Shown here one piece after another: positions 13,372-20,527 of a DNA stretch of 64,000 bases. The DNA lies in contig CAWBQK010000017.1 in the NCBI GenBank assembly GCA_963791045.1, positions 288,001 to 352,000 on the forward strand. Reading direction: 5' to 3'. Position 1 is the stretch's first letter. Each line of letters begins with the position of its first letter. Made by a program: the position numbers and the translations under genes. Under the pieces are notes generated by a model. It was given only the letters and a program-made list of their open reading frames with translations. It searched no databases and was not told the origin of the DNA. Source of the stretch: Candidatus Latescibacterota bacterium (GTDB lineage: Bacteria; Krumholzibacteriota; Krumholzibacteriia; WVZY01).

Positions 13372-15504
13372 ATGTGGTCTATTACGCAAGAAACCATACG
13401 AATTCTGAATGAGTCCGCGGGCTATCTCCTTTTTGGATTTCTCCTTGCCGGACTGCTCAACGTTCTCCTCAACCGGTACCGCCGTATCACCGGCATCCTG
13501 TCGGCGCCCGGTCAGAAGCCTGTATTCCTCGCCGCTATTCTTGGCGCTCCGCTCCCACTGTGTTCATGCAGTGTTCTTCCAACCGCGCTTACGCTCAGAA
13601 AGCAAGGCGCGAGCAAAGGGGCCACCGCGTCCTTTCTCATTTCCGTGCCGGAAACCGACATCATTTCGATCGTCCTCACCTATGCGTTGTTAGGCCCCGT
13701 CCTTGCTATCGCGAGGCCTGTGTCCGCGGTGATTACGGCGATTGTCACCGGGATAGTCATCAACGCGGTGGAGGCACGGTCAAAAGACATCTCGTCTGCG
13801 CCCTCGACTAACAAAAAGGGCGGGAGCGACGGTCAGAAAGAGAACGGGCTCGAACCCAAAAAGAGTGCGGCGCCGAAATCTGCTGATTCGCCGCCCGGCG
13901 GACACTGGCTGGTCAGAGCGCTTCGCTTCGGGTTTGTCGAGATGTTCGACGACATCATGGGCCAACTTTTTATTGGTATCATTATCGCCGGCGCAATTGT
14001 TGCCTGGTTCCCGTCCCTCAACGTTCAGGAGATGGTCGGTTCCTCGTTCCTCACGTACTTCGTGATGCTGGGAGTAGGCATTCCGGTTTACGTCTGCGCG
14101 ACGGCGTCAACACCGGTGGCCGTGGGGTTGATCGCCGGTGGCGTGAGCCCTGGGGCGGCACTCGTCTTTTTGCTCGCGGGTCCCGCGACAAACATCGCAA
14201 GCCTCGTGGTCCTCAACCGCCAGTTTGGCAAAAAGATCCTGGCGGCATACCTGGTTTCCATTGGAATCGTGAGCCTCGCTTTCGGAATTGCTCTCGATTG
14301 GTTGATCGGACCCGATTACTCCGTCAGGCACCTCGTCATGGATCCTCTTGCCGAGGCCGGTGCTGGTAAAGTCCAGATCGCCGGAACGATTCTCCTCCTC
14401 TTTCTTGTCGGGCTCAGTTTTCGCAGAACCGGAATATTGAAAACGTGGGTGATCTCGGCTTCAAAAAGATTCAGGATCTCGGTGCCCCCGCGGACGGTAG
14501 TGATATCGCTCCTGGCCGTACTGGCGCTCGGTTATCTCTGTAGCGGATTGTTCGTGGTGGATCCTGGAGAAAGAGCGGCGGTGAAGCGATTCGGAAGGAT
14601 AACCAACGGATATCTCCAGCCGGGGCTACACTATCGATGGCCGTTCCCGTTTGGAGTCGCGGATGTCGAATCGGTCACGCTTCTGCGCAGAGTCGAGATT
14701 GGCTTCAGGTCGGATCAGGGCGACTTCATGGCGCTGTCCGCGGAGGATGAGGGCCCGTTCGTTTCGGAGGCGTGGATGCTCGCGGGCGACGAAAACATCG
14801 TCGATGCGCGTTGCGCCGTCCAGTACCAGATCATAGATACTGAAGAAGCCTTTGGGAACTTTGTATACGGTGTCAAGGACAAGACGGCCCTGGTTAGAAA
14901 CGCCGCGGAGTGGGCGCTGAGAAAATCCGTTTCGACCAGGGGAATCGACTCGCTTCTCACCGTCGATCGCGGCGAAGTAGAACACGAAATTAAAACCATC
15001 TTTCTGCAGAGCCGTCTCGATGCGTGCGCCTCGGGCGTGCGGGTTGTGGATGTGAATCTCGAGTCGGTTCACGCACCGGCCCCGGTACACTGGGCCTTCA
15101 GGGATGTAGCCAGCGCCGTGGAAGACCAACGACAGAAGGAAAATATTGCGCGGGAATACTGGGAGCGAACGACGCTTGGCGCCGAGGGGGAAGCGTCGGG
15201 TGTCCTGTCGCAGGCGGACGGCGAGGCGATCGAGCGGGTGCAGAGGGCGATGGGGGACGGTTACGCGTTCGATGCCCTGCGGAAGGTTTACACTCAAGCG
15301 CCCGAAGTCACGGAAATTCGTCTCTATCTCGAGTGGATGGACAGGTTCCTCCCCGGGATGAACAAATACGTGGATCTCATGCCGAGCGGCCGCGGCGGTC
15401 GCGATGTTTGGCTTCGCATGGGACGGGATTCAAAAAAGGGAGCCGAAGGAATGATTAAGGAATTCGAGCTCCCCTGGTCAAGCGATCGGGAGGATACGCA
15501 GTGA
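13372..15504 (+). CDS. Fusion of a DUF318/ArsP-type (SO_0444-like) permease with an HflK-like SPFH domain
   Basis: Permease motifs GAPLPLCSCSVLP, FLISVPET, PVYVCATASTP, GAALVFLLAGPATN. From ~14500: TM-GLFVVDPGERAAVKRFG, PGLHYRWPFP, LAGDENIVD, PVHWAFRDV, APEVTEIRLYLE. Confidence 0.9.
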   Translation: MWSITQETIRILNESAGYLLFGFLLAGLLNVLLNRYRRITGILSAPGQKPVFLAAILGAPLPLCSCSVLPTALTLRKQGASKGATASFLISVPETDIISIVLTYALLGPVLAIARPVSAVITAIVTGIVINAVEARSKDISSAPSTNKKGGSDGQKENGLEPKKSAAPKSADSPPGGHWLVRALRFGFVEMFDDIMGQLFIGIIIAGAIVAWFPSLNVQEMVGSSFLTYFVMLGVGIPVYVCATASTPVAVGLIAGGVSPGAALVFLLAGPATNIASLVVLNRQFGKKILAAYLVSIGIVSLAFGIALDWLIGPDYSVRHLVMDPLAEAGAGKVQIAGTILLLFLVGLSFRRTGILKTWVISASKRFRISVPPRTVVISLLAVLALGYLCSGLFVVDPGERAAVKRFGRITNGYLQPGLHYRWPFPFGVADVESVTLLRRVEIGFRSDQGDFMALSAEDEGPFVSEAWMLAGDENIVDARCAVQYQIIDTEEAFGNFVYGVKDKTALVRNAAEWALRKSVSTRGIDSLLTVDRGEVEHEIKTIFLQSRLDACASGVRVVDVNLESVHAPAPVHWAFRDVASAVEDQRQKENIAREYWERTTLGAEGEASGVLSQADGEAIERVQRAMGDGYAFDALRKVYTQAPEVTEIRLYLEWMDRFLPGMNKYVDLMPSGRGGRDVWLRMGRDSKKGAEGMIKEFELPWSSDREDTQ

Positions 15505-16391
15505 AAACAATCGGAAGCGCGGTTTTATTTGTGGTCCTGATGGTTCTCATCGGAACCGCGCTATTTTTTGTCGATGAGACCGAATATGCCATCGTCCTTC
15601 GGTTCGGGCAGCCGACCCAGACGATCACATCAGCCGGGCTAAAAGCCAAATGGCCATGGCCCATCGAGAATGTTGTTCGGTTTGACCGTCGTCTTATGGT
15701 GTTCGATGTTCCCGCCGTGGACGAACCACCTCGCGAATTTCTTACGCTCGATAAGAAGAACATCGAGGTGTCGAGTTATACCTGCTGGCGGATCGATGAC
15801 CCCCTCCATTTTCTGCAAACGGTAGGGGACCGCGAAGGCGCGGAGGCCTACATACGCGACATTGTTGTTTCCGAAAAAGGAAAGCTGCTCGGCAGAAACA
15901 ATCTTAGCGCGCTGGTCTCCGTGGTGCCGGAGCAAATTCGACTGGACTCGATAGCCGCGGAGATTCGAAACACCTGTAACGACGTCGCGATGAGAGAATG
16001 TGGGGTTCGCGTCATCGATTTTCGAATGAAGCGGATCAATTACCCCGAGCAAAACCGCAATAGTGTTTTCGAGCGGATGAGAGCCGAGCGCAAACAGATC
16101 GCGACGCGTTACAGAAGTGAGGGCGAGAAAGAGGCAAGCCGCATCCGCGCGGAAGCCGACCGGCGCCGAATGGAGATTCTCGCCACGGCGACACGAACGG
16201 CCCTCGAAACCAAGGGAAACGGGGAAGCGGAAGCGGCACGGATATACAACGAGGCGTACGGGAAGAACCGGGAGTTTTACCAGTTTTTGCGCACGCTGGA
16301 ATCGTATGAAACCTCGATGGACGAGGGCACGACGATTTTGCTTCCATCGTCTATGAAGTACCTGAGAACACTTCTCGATCCGGTTCGGTGA
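15501..16391 (+). CDS. hflC: HflC-like SPFH membrane protein
   Basis: VDETEYAIVLRFGQP, LTLDKKNI, WRIDDP, VFERMRAERKQIA, EFYQFLRTLESY; 4-nt overlap with the upstream gene. Confidence 0.9.
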   Translation: MKTIGSAVLFVVLMVLIGTALFFVDETEYAIVLRFGQPTQTITSAGLKAKWPWPIENVVRFDRRLMVFDVPAVDEPPREFLTLDKKNIEVSSYTCWRIDDPLHFLQTVGDREGAEAYIRDIVVSEKGKLLGRNNLSALVSVVPEQIRLDSIAAEIRNTCNDVAMRECGVRVIDFRMKRINYPEQNRNSVFERMRAERKQIATRYRSEGEKEASRIRAEADRRRMEILATATRTALETKGNGEAEAARIYNEAYGKNREFYQFLRTLESYETSMDEGTTILLPSSMKYLRTLLDPVR

Positions 16392-16422
16392 CAGACCGTC
16401 GCATGAGTGGGATTGTGTTTTC

Positions 16423-17358
16423 ATGCCGGACAGAAACATGAACGATACAAAATACGAGAATATACAACGAGGGTTGGCGGGTCGCCGGAAGTATGGCTGG
16501 ATTGCGCTATCTGTGGTCCTTGTGTGGTTGGCGACCGGGTTTTATACCGTGGATTCGAATCAACGCGGCGTCATCACGCGTTTTGGCAAGGTTCGGGGTA
16601 GAACGCCCCCCGGAATTCACTATGCGCTTCCACGACCCATCGATCGTGTGTTTACCCCGGCAACGACTGAGGTCCGCAGGATCGAAGTGGGGTTTCGCTT
16701 GAAAGGAGAGTTGTGGGCGGAGAAACGCCGTTCGGATATGCTCACCGGGGACCAGAATATCCTCAAGGTTATGATGGTTGTGCAGTATAAAATACGCGAG
16801 CCGGAGAAATATCTCTTCGATGTTTCGGAGCCGGATTGGCTTGTCGAGCGCGCGATCGAGTCGGCGATGTCCGCGTACATATCTCGTGTGTCCGTGGATG
16901 ACGTTCTTACCACCGCCAAGGCCGAGATCGAGATACGCACCGTCGAAGGCGCCCAAGCATTGCTCGATCACTATGGTGTTGGCGTGTCGCTCCTGACGGG
17001 CAACCTCCAGGTGGTTTCGCCGCCAGTGCCGGTCATCGAGGCGTTCAACGATGTGGCGCGCGCGAAGAAAGACAGCGAACGCACGATTGAAGACGCTCGT
17101 GTATATTCGAACGAGATCATTCCAAGATCCGAAGGGGAAGCGGAAGGCATCACGAATGCTGCCGGCGGTGCTTACGAGATGCGTGTCAAACAGGCGCATG
17201 GACACGCAAAACGATTCAACGATCTTCTCGTGGAATACAACCGTGATCGTAGTCTCACCAAACAACGATTGTACCTGGAAACAGTGGAGAGGGTTCTGTT
17301 AAAAACAAAAGTGGTAATCGTTGATGACAGTTCGACCGTCACCATCATCGAAGATTAA
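16423..17358 (+). CDS. hflK: HflK-like SPFH membrane protein
   Basis: WLATGFYTV, GVITRFGK, PGIHYALP, MLTGDQNI, PVIEAFNDV, IPRSEGEA, TKQRLYLETVE. Confidence 0.9.
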   Translation: MPDRNMNDTKYENIQRGLAGRRKYGWIALSVVLVWLATGFYTVDSNQRGVITRFGKVRGRTPPGIHYALPRPIDRVFTPATTEVRRIEVGFRLKGELWAEKRRSDMLTGDQNILKVMMVVQYKIREPEKYLFDVSEPDWLVERAIESAMSAYISRVSVDDVLTTAKAEIEIRTVEGAQALLDHYGVGVSLLTGNLQVVSPPVPVIEAFNDVARAKKDSERTIEDARVYSNEIIPRSEGEAEGITNAAGGAYEMRVKQAHGHAKRFNDLLVEYNRDRSLTKQRLYLETVERVLLKTKVVIVDDSSTVTIIED

Positions 17359-17434
17359 TCCCGCCGTCACGCCCCATCAGATGCGCGTACCTCGTCCAGC
17401 CCTTTCCAATGTATACTATCGCTGATTCGAGGAT

Positions 17435-17569
17435 AAAAAAAACGAGAGTACTAGCCCGATGCCAACCGTGTCGCTTAACGCCCATCAGAGGCCCATGCGG
17501 CAACCGCTTCGCTAAAGCATTATAGCTTGAGAGCAGAGGGCTCACGCGAAGGTTCGGGATACTCTCGTT
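17435..17569 (-). ncRNA. Candidate structured small RNA (~130 nt), family unassigned
   Basis: Starts 7 nt after TTGACA-18-TATAAT; 5' AACGAGAGTA pairs exactly with 3' TACTCTCGTT followed by a T-tract; further nested stems. Confidence 0.6.
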
Positions 17570-17575
17570 AGTAAT

Positions 17576-17605
17576 ATTATACTCGGGCATCGTTTCGACT
17601 GTCAA
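17576..17605 (-). promoter_or_regulatory. Consensus sigma-70 promoter
   Basis: Minus strand TTGACA-gtcgaaacgatgcccgag-TATAAT; no plausible CDS downstream. Confidence 0.8.
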
Positions 17606-17760
17606 CCCCCCGGCCTAAATTTTTGGAATCCATAACCTGTTAATTCACAGTCCGTTGCACAGCCCATTTAACCTTTTTTCGACATCAAGGGGTTGCTGTA
17701 ACACGCTGATATACAACGCGTTGTGGTGGTGTACGAACTTGCGTTTTTATAATGGGTTGA

Positions 17761-17939
17761 AAGGGGGGCTTGATGTGAAATCCAACCAAGATACGGGGGG
17801 AGCATCTTGAGAGGGGTGAAAACGGTGTTCCCGGTTGCTAGCAATCTATGGCCGACCAATCGGGAACACCGAAGAAAATCACCTTCTCAGCCACCACAGT
17901 AGGTCGATGAGGTAAATCCTCTGCATGTTGCACCCCCTT
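17761..17939 (+). ncRNA. Candidate 6S-RNA-like rod-shaped RNA (~180 nt)
   Basis: TATAAT at 17748-17753; closing stem AAGGGGG/CCCCCTT; apical stems TGAGAGGGGTGA/TCACCTTCTCA and CGGTGTTCCCGGTTG/CAATCGGGAACACCG with G-U pairs favouring +; largely unpaired central region. Confidence 0.4.
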
Positions 17940-18034
17940 GTAAGGGTAGGTTGACTTACCTGCTACCGGGCGATATTTTGGATTGCTCAATATGTCGCAC
18001 AGCAAAAAGCGTTCCGTGTGCGGTGTGGCGGGAG

Positions 18035-20527
18035 TTAAGCGTTTTTATATCTGACAATTACATTTGTTATGTCATCGTGTTGCTTGCCGTCCCCAAAGGC
18101 CAGAATCGTTGCAAATAGCGAATCCTGCAACCGTCCGAGCGGCAAGTTCCGGTTCGCTTTGAGAAATCGGATCAGACGGTCCTCGCCATACTCCTCGTCG
18201 GTGGGGCTGGCCTGCTCCGTGACTCCATCGGTGTAAAGAAAGAGAATGTCGCCGGGGTCGAGACGAACTCTTCCTTCTGTATAGACGTGGTTGCTATCAA
18301 TGCCGAGAATCAGTCCGCCTTCGCCCAGCCTGTCGGCGAACTCCGTCTTCAAAAGGATCGCGGGGCAGTGACCTGCATTGCAAAAAGAAAAGGTCGAGTC
18401 GATCATATCGATGATGCCGTAAAAGAACGTGGTGAACAACTCGCTCTTTGCGTTTGCACACAGATGCTTATTGAGTTCGCCGACGACATCACTGGGATTC
18501 ATCCGATCGCGCACGGCTAGGTTCTTGAACACTGCCTGGAGCGATGACATCAGCATTGCTGCGGGAACGCCTTTGCCACTGACGTCCCCGATGGCGACGC
18601 CGATACGGTTCGCGTCGAGCGCGAAATAATCAAAGTAGTCACCGCCAACCTCGACGGAGCTGACCATTTTGCCGGCGAGATCCAATTGGGAGTGATGGGG
18701 CGGTTTCTTGGGGAGAAGATCGAGTTGGATTTCTCTCGCGAGCATAACCTCGTTTTTGAGGCGTTCCTGTTGGATCGAAGCCTCGTGAAGATCGGCATTC
18801 TCCAGCACCAGCCCAAGATGTTCCGACAAAGTTTCGAGGAGCTCGGAGTCAGTTTGAGTGTAGAGCAGACCGGAACGTTTTTTTCCAAGTATGATGAGTC
18901 CAAAGAGAGCGTCCGCCGAACCCACGGGAAGACACACGGCGGCTTGTGTCGAGGCGAGAAACCCCAACGAGGGGCCATCCAGATATCTTCTTTCCCACGT
19001 GTTGTCCAGGTATTCGACCATGAGCGGCTTTCGGTAACGGCTCAGGTACCTGCCGAGAAGCGATCCTGTGGGAAACGTTTCAGGAAATTTCGCCCCGTTT
19101 GAATTGTCGGTATCGAGAGCGAGACGCCCGTCTTCCTGGTCGTACCGATAGAAAACAAAATAGGACGCCTTGAGAAGGGAGCCTATACGGTTGGAAAAGT
19201 GATCGAGGATCTCGGACGATTTGATTTTGTGTGAGATCTCCCTGTTGAATTCCACAACTTCCTGACGGTAATCGTATTCACCACGGAAAAACAAACGATC
19301 GACAACGCCCTGGACGATCTGGCGCGCGGGGGCAAAAATAACGGCAAGAACAAGGACCGTAATAACGGAGAAGTAAGTCGGGTCGAGCTTGAATTCGGTC
19401 GTAAAGTAGTCGCCAAGAAAACGAACGACACCGTAATACGCGGCTATAATGACACCGGTGAGAAACGCGTACACAATGCTCTTTCTCACCACAATGTTGA
19501 GTTCGATTGCGCCATGCTTGAGGATTGCGTACGCAAACGACACCGACACGAACGCGAGACCCAGCGAGCAAACAAATTCCCATGTCGTGTATGTCCCCGG
19601 CATGATCTGACGCCACACGATCATGGAAAGGAAGGGAAGCATCCCGACTATGGTTCCACCGATTGCAATACGAAGTTTTTGCCGCTGCGCCACCGTAGAC
19701 GATCGGTAATTGCGGACAAATACAACCATGGAAGCCACGAGGTACGCCGTAATGTAGAGAGTCGATATCGACAGAATAAGGGTGAGAACAACGGTCGGAG
19801 TGTGGTCAAAATAAAAATTGCGTATCGCGAAAACACAACTTATCAAATAGATGAGGGTCGGTATTGTGTAGATCAGCAGAGCACGGCGGATAAGCTCGCG
19901 TTTGCCGGGCGGGCGGAGCCGATCGGGAAAAACGAGAAAAAAGTGAAGAAAGACCGCGGGAAAAAATATCATTGCCGCGTCGTCGAATAGCTCACCGGCG
20001 ATCTGCAGAAACGATATGTCGAATACGGGCCTGTCTCCGAGAAGATAACAAATGATAATCGAAGTGAGGGCGAAGGTGATGCCGATGGTATCCGTCCGGC
20101 GGAGCAATACGAGAAGACCGGTCAAAAGAAATGTAAACCCAACGAGAACCAGTCCGAAGCGGCGGTGAACGATCGATGAGGGGATAGTAACGTATTCGAC
20201 CTCGACGGTGAATTCTTCGCCGTTCCTTTCCAGGACATATTCGGTCGGCTCGAAGGAGCCGTTTTTTCTGACGACAGATCTGAGGTGTTTGTAGTTACGG
20301 ACGGGCACGCCGGCGACGGAGATGATTTCGTCATTGAGTTCGATGGGTTTTTCTGCGTTTGGGCCCTTTGAATTGATGTTCTGAACTGTGAGATTCAGCG
20401 TCTCGATCCCCGAATATGGGGTATTTATAAGGTCGCGCGACCCGGGAAACTGGAGAAAAACCGTCAGGAGCACCAGGAGCAGGACAGGGAATCGGAGGTA
20501 CCGGTGGTGGAGCGGTGCTTGACGCAT
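18035..20527 (-). CDS. Membrane PDZ/GAF-SpoIIE (PP2C, RsbU-like) phosphatase
   Basis: PDZ-like N-terminal region, multiple TM helices, GAF-like domain; AREIQLDLLP, EVGGDYFD, GDVSGKG, CNAGH, LYTDG, DDIT. Confidence 0.92.
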   Translation of the reverse strand: MRQAPLHHRYLRFPVLLLVLLTVFLQFPGSRDLINTPYSGIETLNLTVQNINSKGPNAEKPIELNDEIISVAGVPVRNYKHLRSVVRKNGSFEPTEYVLERNGEEFTVEVEYVTIPSSIVHRRFGLVLVGFTFLLTGLLVLLRRTDTIGITFALTSIIICYLLGDRPVFDISFLQIAGELFDDAAMIFFPAVFLHFFLVFPDRLRPPGKRELIRRALLIYTIPTLIYLISCVFAIRNFYFDHTPTVVLTLILSISTLYITAYLVASMVVFVRNYRSSTVAQRQKLRIAIGGTIVGMLPFLSMIVWRQIMPGTYTTWEFVCSLGLAFVSVSFAYAILKHGAIELNIVVRKSIVYAFLTGVIIAAYYGVVRFLGDYFTTEFKLDPTYFSVITVLVLAVIFAPARQIVQGVVDRLFFRGEYDYRQEVVEFNREISHKIKSSEILDHFSNRIGSLLKASYFVFYRYDQEDGRLALDTDNSNGAKFPETFPTGSLLGRYLSRYRKPLMVEYLDNTWERRYLDGPSLGFLASTQAAVCLPVGSADALFGLIILGKKRSGLLYTQTDSELLETLSEHLGLVLENADLHEASIQQERLKNEVMLAREIQLDLLPKKPPHHSQLDLAGKMVSSVEVGGDYFDYFALDANRIGVAIGDVSGKGVPAAMLMSSLQAVFKNLAVRDRMNPSDVVGELNKHLCANAKSELFTTFFYGIIDMIDSTFSFCNAGHCPAILLKTEFADRLGEGGLILGIDSNHVYTEGRVRLDPGDILFLYTDGVTEQASPTDEEYGEDRLIRFLKANRNLPLGRLQDSLFATILAFGDGKQHDDITNVIVRYKNA

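Follow-up and report, generated by a model that had tools for sequence, protein, structure and literature searches.

Which gene occupies the minus strand of a 676-bp intergenic gap in the genome of a Candidatus Latescibacterota bacterium, and does its product belong to any known family of RNAs? The gap lies within a stretch of 64,000 nucleotides (nt), referred to here as the window (GenBank assembly GCA_963791045.1, contig CAWBQK010000017.1, positions 288,001 to 352,000 of the forward strand), between a gene for a membrane phosphatase and a convergent Band_7 gene (16423-17358). An earlier note on this DNA had read in the gap a gene for a structured noncoding RNA (ncRNA) that it could place in no family. 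Comparison with related loci gives good support to two statements, both of which agree with that reading: the locus is a stand-alone, separately transcribed ncRNA gene with its own sigma-70 promoter and terminator, and the RNA founds a previously undescribed family. The novelty concerns the family; the mechanism put forward below is inferred. Coordinates of all features are collected in Table 1.

The minus-strand promoter of the RNA gene (17605-17576) has the form TTGACA-18-TATAAT, as the earlier note had it, and matches the consensus at 12 of 12 positions. TTGACA is retained in all 30 aligned relatives, in 27 of 27 further loci and in 42 of the 44 matches from a pattern scan of metagenomes; these 42 are genuine loci carrying the promoter, and the remaining two (L201 and L210) are chance matches within coding-looking sequence. 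The predicted start, A17569, lies 7 bases past the -10 hexamer and coincides with the point at which conservation among relatives begins, many matches opening at query base 42-44 (window 17569-17567). From this start the RNA measures about 127 nt to the end of its closing helix and 135 nt including the tail. Its 5′ end, AACGAGAGUA, pairs with its 3′ end, UACUCUCGUU, the latter entering a U8 tract (17442-17435), so that the first 9-10 bases are matched with those that lead up to and enter the tail. This closing helix (P1) is paired in 95% of cells in an alignment of 29 sequences (A1), which bears out the claim that the first ten or so bases close upon the last ten or so before the U tract. Its sequence AACGAG...CUCGUU is kept in most families of the clade, and where the ends differ, in family f6, they stay complementary. 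P1 probably doubles as an intrinsic terminator. In families f5, f8 and f9 (L111-L134, L149, L151, L152 and L169) a separate terminator hairpin, GGGAAU...AUUCCC, stands 3′ of the RNA and the closing helix is not followed immediately by a U tract, which implies that the helix is kept there for reasons other than termination. A 136-nt stretch folds at -51.7 kcal/mol, compared with -41.2 +/- 4.0 kcal/mol for 200 shuffled sequences (z -2.64). The identity of the gene 3′ of the RNA varies between loci.

The RNA is noncoding and is read from the minus strand. U-G or G-U pairs occur at three positions in 32, 24 and 24 of 61 sequences, and these fit the RNA strand alone, as they would be A-C mismatches on the opposite strand. 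Reverse-strand self-matches of the covariance model score 20-25 bits, as against 93-139 bits for the loci of families f1 and f2. Insertions and deletions between relatives within the RNA are not multiples of three, and an 86-amino-acid (aa) open reading frame (ORF) that overlaps it has no Pfam match.

The RNA falls outside every family against which its membership was tested. A search of the whole window with Rfam 15 at gathering score, with ARAGORN also run, returned two transfer RNAs (tRNAs) as its sole matches, the plus-strand genes for tRNA-Pro(CGG) at 345-422 and tRNA-Arg(CCU) at 2053-2129. When 17200-17900 was searched with Rfam 15 at E ≤ 10, no family was found, the sole return being a chance match to mir-194 (E 1.6); at this threshold the RNA locus matches no model of a 6S RNA, signal recognition particle (SRP) RNA, tRNA, Y RNA, YrlA, riboswitch or ribozyme. 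The host genome carries its own small SRP RNA on another contig (74.7 bits) and its own 6S RNA at another locus (58.1 bits); the gene described here is neither of these. Searches of the host genome gave 0 matches for TROVE/Rsr (PF05731), Hfq (PF17209), ProQ (PF04352) and CsrA (PF02599); this is no proof of absence, because the genome is 81% complete. The RNA sequence has no repeated GGA hairpin loops, the trait of Csr/Rsm decoys. Full-text literature searches found no paper that connects the Krumholzibacteria with an RNA of such a kind, whether called structured RNA or ncRNA.

Comparative sequence analysis supports well a family consensus in the form of one long, imperfect, unbranched hairpin, or rod, of which the distal third is partly settled. 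Two alignments underlie this model, A1 and a set of 61 distinct cores from which identical cores had been removed beforehand (A4). L033, which is cut by a contig end, was excluded from A1; L152, L124 and L127, which lacked an anchor or were too short, were left out as well; two model-made alignments, A2 and A3, were excluded from the counts owing to reverse-strand self-matches in 2 of 47 and 3 of 49 rows. On A4 the rod pairs 91.4% of cells, compared with 31-49% when partners are slid, and seven pairs are altered on both sides (7-8 across A1 and A4). None of 500 shuffles reached the covariation score of the rod, a control that is inflated by the relatedness of the sequences. The minimum free energy (MFE) structure joins both ends in 14 of 14 validly specified full-length representatives (z -1.7 to -4.1), and the rod, drawn with helix P6′, is lower in energy than a branched junction in 43 of 54 sequences.

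In the outer two thirds of the rod (P1-P4) the sequence drifts and pairing is kept. The CCCGA/UCGGG stem of the earlier note is present as P2, in which two of five pairs are altered on both sides with pairing kept (for example UG to GC), and the stem as a whole becomes CCCUC/GGGGG in relatives. P3 appears as CCUU/AAGG, CCUA/UAGG, CCUA/UGGG, UCUU/AAGA or CUG/CAG, and P4 covaries from CGUG/CACG to CGUA/UACG (L017 and L028). P5 is 88% paired, with two-sided changes at four of seven pairs; compensatory changes include ACA/UGU in L089, GUGCUC/GAGUAC in L112, CAGU/ACUG in L120, CUCA/UGAG in L113 and AGUCCCA/UGGGAUU in L149. Other elements of the original fold did not survive comparison. A UCGC/GCGA stem is possible in the window sequence alone; its 5′ side changes in relatives to UCUC, UCAC or AUUC against a constant GCGA, without compensation, and the competing CGUG/CACG helix covaries. 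The hairpin AAGC-UAUAAU-GCUU is restricted to close kin, with UAUAAU present in 3 of 29 sequences of A1 and 3 of 61 of A4, and the suggestion that its loop mimics a promoter fails because UAUAAU lies in a hypervariable stretch. In place of a junction bearing two hairpins, the relatives indicate a single long rod.

Hardly any sequence variation is seen in the distal third. It comprises GCUCUCA/UGA-N-GGGC with its bulge, an internal loop (CUC), GCY/GGC and the tip GCGAAGCG-RUUGC-YGC. Folds computed separately for 26 diverse cores recurrently pair GCUCUCA (17534-17528) with UGA-N-GGGC (17487-17480) and GCY (17526-17524) with GGC (17493-17491). The third pair of P6′ is formed in 51 of 61 sequences (UG in 24, CG in 22 and UA in 5); at the third pair of the rival hairpin Ha (GCU/AGC), UA is found in 29 of 60. 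The apical hairpin admits two registers, GCG-AA-GC-GGUU-GC-CGC and GCGG-UUG-CCGC, each 97% paired, and the second is a hairpin that the earlier note had recognized. RNAalifold applied to close kin is uninformative for the inner part, which barely varies among them. Two inner arrangements were dropped since diverged relatives pair GCUCUCA with UGA-N-GGGC: the pairing of GCCC with the second GGGC and of GCUC with the first, and a GCCU-CUGAY-GGGC hairpin. The full-length covariance model described next (R1) retains the earlier inner pairs, and its outer helices are unaffected. A reading of the internal loop as a K-turn or loop E was also set aside, the sequence being unlike their consensus.

The RNA is single-copy in the host genome and its distribution is confined to part of one clade. 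Of 61 genomes searched at the DNA level (G000 plus 60 relatives), 33 contained a match, with 11 of 12 in f1, 20 of 23 in f2 and 1 of 25 in other families. Model R1, built from 29 f1 and f2 sequences and applied to a 151-genome sample of the class, matched 47 genomes, at one copy in each: 11 of 12 in f1, 20 of 23 in f2, 8 of 12 in f6 and 7 of 35 in f5, with none in f3 (0/43), f4 (0/7), f7 (0/10), f8 (0/7) or f9 (0/1). Many members of f5 and f8 that R1 missed were recovered via synteny. Model R2, a core covariance model built from the 61 cores of A4, was applied to a 151-genome sample of the phylum, made up of metagenome-assembled genomes labelled Krumholzibacteriia or Latescibacterota; it matched 64 genomes, with one match each in all but one of them. 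By this measure the RNA is frequent in f1 (8/9), f2 (15/17), f5 (26/33) and f6 (10/10), occurs in f8 (1/6) and f9 (1/1), and is rare to absent in f3 (2/60), f4 (0/5) and f7 (0/9). A search with the exact core pattern through prokaryote genomes, one for each species, returned 26 matches, every one in the Krumholzibacteria clade; these loci were dropped as duplicates of loci already known. The two R2 matches in f3 are weak (L167:1501-1573 and L168:1501-1577; 28.6 and 26.6 bits). Both are rod-like and are preceded at about 64 nt by a promoter-like site, and neither has nearby a mini-ORF of the kind described below; L167 has complementary flanks. They may represent a diverged version of the RNA that has moved to another place.

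In nearly all loci that can be judged, the RNA stands directly behind a module composed of a phosphatase gene, a sigma-54-type promoter motif, a mini-ORF and a terminator. In 42 of 45 loci the first ORF upstream shares the strand of the RNA and terminates 250-580 nt ahead of it; the three exceptions are two loci cut by contig ends and one with an ORF on the opposite strand. SpoIIE, a PP2C phosphatase domain, lies at the C-terminus in 20 of 21 upstream ORFs tested, f3 included. GG-N10-GC is the consensus of sigma-54 promoters. All 42 loci of f1, f2, f5, f6 and f8 carry a motif of this type, as do all 36 genuine metagenome loci of sufficient length; none of the 15 f3 loci does. The sigma-54 gene itself cannot discriminate carriers of the RNA because 150 of 151 genomes have it. 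The mini-ORF lies on the same strand as the RNA, in tandem and 310 nt apart, and it is upstream of the RNA in 36 of 36 genuine metagenome loci with at least 450 nt of upstream sequence. In at least six families the DNA changes synonymously and the peptide is retained; variants include ..IIDLLWWLR, ..LLDLFWWLRD and ..VDIFWWLRD. A regular expression detected it in 39 of the 42 gaps; of the loci missed, two carry the DIFWW variant and the third, L026, reads LWF at the motif. Its DNA pattern was found in 102 of 151 genomes, with few exceptions as a single match, and the reversed control pattern in 6. The peptide may be a membrane mini-protein that partners the phosphatase, or an arrest or leader peptide. 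The arms of the hairpin that follows, GUUCCCG/CGGGAAC, are kept even in f5, beyond the need of a plain terminator. In f3 the mini-ORF is found in 33 of 43 genomes and the RNA (by R1) in 0 of 43, and RNA motifs are absent 3′ of the mini-ORF in 14 of 14 f3 loci examined. The literature, searched in full text, yielded no paper that brings together SpoIIE, sigma-54, a small protein and a noncoding RNA.

Metatranscriptome sequences give a weak hint that the RNA is transcribed and is commoner than the mini-ORF element. In one run, contigs cover 17465-17557; an 88-nt contig identical to the window has a word depth of 18, and two further contigs over the RNA have depths of 8.9 and 8.3. The mini-ORF element (17794-17960) is covered in the same run at a depth of 2.3, and no contigs were found in it for the flanking genes. 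The earlier expectation of an abundant RNA is weakly supported by depths of 8-18 compared with 2.3 for the neighbour, in contigs that are a poor measure of expression; all matching sequencing runs have small word shares. In a DNA run of relatives, both conserved stretches are covered about equally (2.0-3.1 and 2.3).

What might such an RNA do? The reading to which we give an even chance is that of an independent ncRNA of housekeeping style, whose invariant distal part docks a protein and whose role is tied to the phosphatase module. Transcription starts at about A17569 from the sigma-70 promoter, and the RNA folds as a rod with its ends locked by a helix of 9-10 bp running into the U tract. 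The distal third would offer a docking surface to a protein, an idea suggested by the contrast between outer helices that drift with compensation and a distal third that is frozen, bulge and internal loops included. The role of the RNA would in that case be that of a stable ribonucleoprotein, or of a sequestering or decoy RNA, rather than of an antisense regulator; nearly every base is paired, and neither Hfq nor ProQ was matched in the 81%-complete genome, which argues against antisense action. Its partner or its regulation probably belongs to the signalling module of phosphatase and mini-protein, because the RNA is nearly always located directly behind that module. The mechanism is proposed by the same logic that applies to 6S, SRP and Y RNAs.

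Several observations weigh against this reading. The linkage may reflect nothing more than inheritance, the phosphatase and mini-ORF persisting in f3 with no RNA downstream; the f3 matches, both of them weak, are located elsewhere, away from any mini-ORF. The energy gap between the rod and a three-way junction (hairpins Ha and Hb) is merely 0.4-5 kcal/mol, the junction is favoured in 11 of 54 sequences, and the MFE structure of the window sequence itself is branched. Many core pairs never vary, and because the core is so conserved they are uninformative. Finally, coverage in the RNA library is no proof of transcription, since the DNA run covers the same stretches. A bolder version appears improbable to us: a new signalling module in which a membrane PDZ-GAF-PP2C phosphatase, a sigma-54-dependent 15-aa mini-protein and a constitutive rod RNA work together, with the tip of the rod binding either the cytoplasmic part of the phosphatase or the transcription machinery at the sigma-54 promoter. 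If true, a pathway of the PP2C partner-switching type would for the first time be found to use a structured RNA as cofactor or decoy.

Similarly improbable, and the best placed of the competing explanations, is that the RNA is a trans-acting small RNA (sRNA) that regulates by base pairing, with CUC/CCUCUGA (similar to an anti-Shine-Dalgarno sequence) or the apical GGUUGC directed at messenger RNAs such as that of the mini-ORF. A stand-alone promoter and terminator are what classical sRNAs possess, CCUC could pair with the GGGGG or GGAGG of ribosome-binding sites at the mini-ORF, and in the window the mini-ORF contains CAGAGG, complementary to CCUCUG. This last complementarity is lost in relatives, however, where the mini-ORF starts with AUGCGGAUC, and duplexes with the cognate mini-ORF message are no better in energy than those with shuffled messages (for example -77.4 vs -78.4, over 17 loci and by a crude global method). 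An RNA almost wholly paired, in an 81%-complete genome where Hfq and ProQ were not found, is likewise a poor fit to this explanation.

There is a small chance that the RNA serves as an antitoxin for, or dedicated regulator of, the tiny hydrophobic peptide encoded next to it. In the type I system Ibs/Sib, a peptide of 18-19 aa is accompanied by an RNA of about 140 nt, and the RNA described here is of comparable size and adjoins an ORF for a hydrophobic peptide of 15-17 aa in all 36 genuine metagenome loci whose flank is long enough, the genome loci being alike. Unlike Sib RNAs, it is in tandem with the peptide gene and not antisense to it; no extended complementarity was found between the two, nor any signal above shuffles by the crude method. 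Both genes are single-copy and vertically conserved, in contrast to typical toxin-antitoxin loci, and the peptide gene survives without the RNA in f3, as detailed above. Equally slight is the likelihood of a ligand-binding or catalytic RNA in which the distal internal loops and bulges form a pocket or active site. Invariance of the distal third does exceed what pairing needs, and it includes a conserved bulge and internal loops, but no riboswitch or ribozyme family of Rfam matched at E ≤ 10 and there is no downstream gene to control. A hammerhead-like pair of motifs, CUGAUGG and CGAAG, was considered and rejected: compared with the hammerhead core, their order is wrong, stem I is missing and A9 is replaced by G, and Rfam gave no match.

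A strongly diverged version of a known RNA (a second 6S RNA, an SRP-like RNA or a bacterial Y RNA) is marginally less probable again. Some bacteria possess two 6S RNAs, and the paired ends, rod, consensus promoter and single copy are shared features; set against them are the lack of a match to 6S, SRP, Y or other families at E ≤ 10 and the presence of genuine SRP and 6S RNAs elsewhere in the genome. Like 6S RNA (RF00013), the new RNA has a stand-alone gene with a strong promoter, paired ends and a single copy in each genome; presumably it is also abundant and bound by protein. It differs in its length of about 130 nt (116-139 nt) compared with about 180 nt, in having small internal loops only and no large central bubble in its consensus, and in its promoter-like UAUAAU loop, which is not conserved. 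Small bacterial SRP (4.5S) RNA (RF00169) is also a single hairpin of about 115-130 nt with a conserved distal third of internal loops and tip; the new RNA lacks the GGAA tetraloop and the domain IV motifs, its tip loop being GGUU or GAUU. Bacterial Y RNAs (Yrn1/YrlA) have an end-to-end stem and a gene kept beside a protein gene, as here, but the new RNA has no tRNA-like T-arm, its neighbours are SpoIIE and Band_7 genes, and no TROVE/Rsr gene was found in the 81%-complete genome. Least probable of all, the RNA might be a read-through or 3′-end product of the sigma-54-driven transcript, with the mini-ORF as an attenuator-like leader containing tandem Trp codons; the constant order of sigma-54-type promoter, UGG-UGG ORF, terminator hairpin and RNA would suit it, and the layout resembles that of trp-type leaders, but the RNA has a perfect and universally conserved sigma-70 promoter of its own, the peptide is conserved at the amino-acid level as those of simple attenuator leaders are not, and f3 retains the mini-ORF with nothing downstream to regulate.

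Orphan structured ncRNAs such as raiA, OLE and ROOL/GOLLD are defined by conservation and covariation, are restricted to particular lineages and often lie beside particular genes. The RNA described here matches none of them and is much smaller, unbranched and confined to part of one candidate phylum. Candidate phyla that are represented by metagenomes only are nearly blank with respect to ncRNAs. Conservation across families, a textbook promoter and an end-to-end structure are hallmarks of RNAs that later proved to be core machinery or global regulators, such as 6S, SRP and Y RNAs, and the near-constant place behind a phosphatase and mini-protein module offers a testable lead to a possible new case of regulation by RNA and protein. 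The RNA merits a family model so that genomes of the clade can be annotated.

Table 1. Features of the RNA gene and of the module upstream of it (window coordinates)
Feature	Position	Strand	Partner, basis or remark
ncRNA, predicted start A17569, 3′ U8 tract	17435-17569	minus	conservation, promoter, covariance models
-35 hexamer TTGACA of the RNA's own promoter	17600-17605	minus	consensus; kept in relatives
-10 hexamer TATAAT, 18-nt spacer	17576-17581	minus	TATACT in most relatives
P1 5′ strand AACGAGAGU (closing helix)	17561-17569	minus	pairs with 17441-17449
P1 3′ strand ACUCUCGUU, entering U tract 17435-17442	17441-17449	minus	pairs with P1 5′ strand
P2 CCCGA	17554-17558	minus	partner UCGGG 17455-17459; two-sided changes
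P3 CCUU	17549-17552	minus	family partner UUGG 17462-17465; two U-U mismatches in host genome
P4 CGUG	17543-17546	minus	partner CACG 17467-17470; covarying
P4 extension GC/GC	17540-17541 with 17473-17474	minus	UC/GA or CGC/GCG in other families
P5 GCUC-UCA	17528-17534	minus	partner UGA-(U)-GGGC 17480-17487, one bulged base; compensatory changes
P6′ GCU	17524-17526	minus	partner GGC 17491-17493; adjoins internal loop A17527 opposite CUC 17488-17490
Hypervariable stretch AUAAUGCUUUA	17513-17523	minus	contains UAUAAU together with U17524; about 4-20 nt, sequence not conserved
Apical hairpin GCGAAGCGGUUGCCGC	17497-17512	minus	near-invariant; most columns (nearly) invariant in 61 sequences
Gene for 830-aa membrane protein, PDZ + GAF + SpoIIE (PP2C phosphatase)	18035-20527	minus	Pfam matches
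Sigma-54-type promoter motif GGAACGCTTTTTGC (GG-N10-GC)	18002-18015	minus	20-33 nt past phosphatase stop codon
15-codon ORF MQRIYLIDLLWWLRR (..DLLWWLRR)	17879-17926	minus	AAGGGGG ribosome-binding site
Hairpin CGGUGUUCCCG...CCGGGAACACCG + UUUU (to 17819)	17823-17871	minus	read as mini-ORF terminator

Two further observations concern the surroundings of the gene. Between the sigma-54-type motif and the mini-ORF, a leader (17927-18001, minus strand) contains the conserved blocks CAGGUAAAUC in f1 and GCGCCGAUGGGUUGAAUCC in f2, which have CCGAU in common, and it may be a structured regulatory leader. On the opposite side, three successive plus-strand genes with Band_7/SPFH domains (13372-17358) converge on the RNA gene, and the first of the three is fused to an ArsP-type permease domain.

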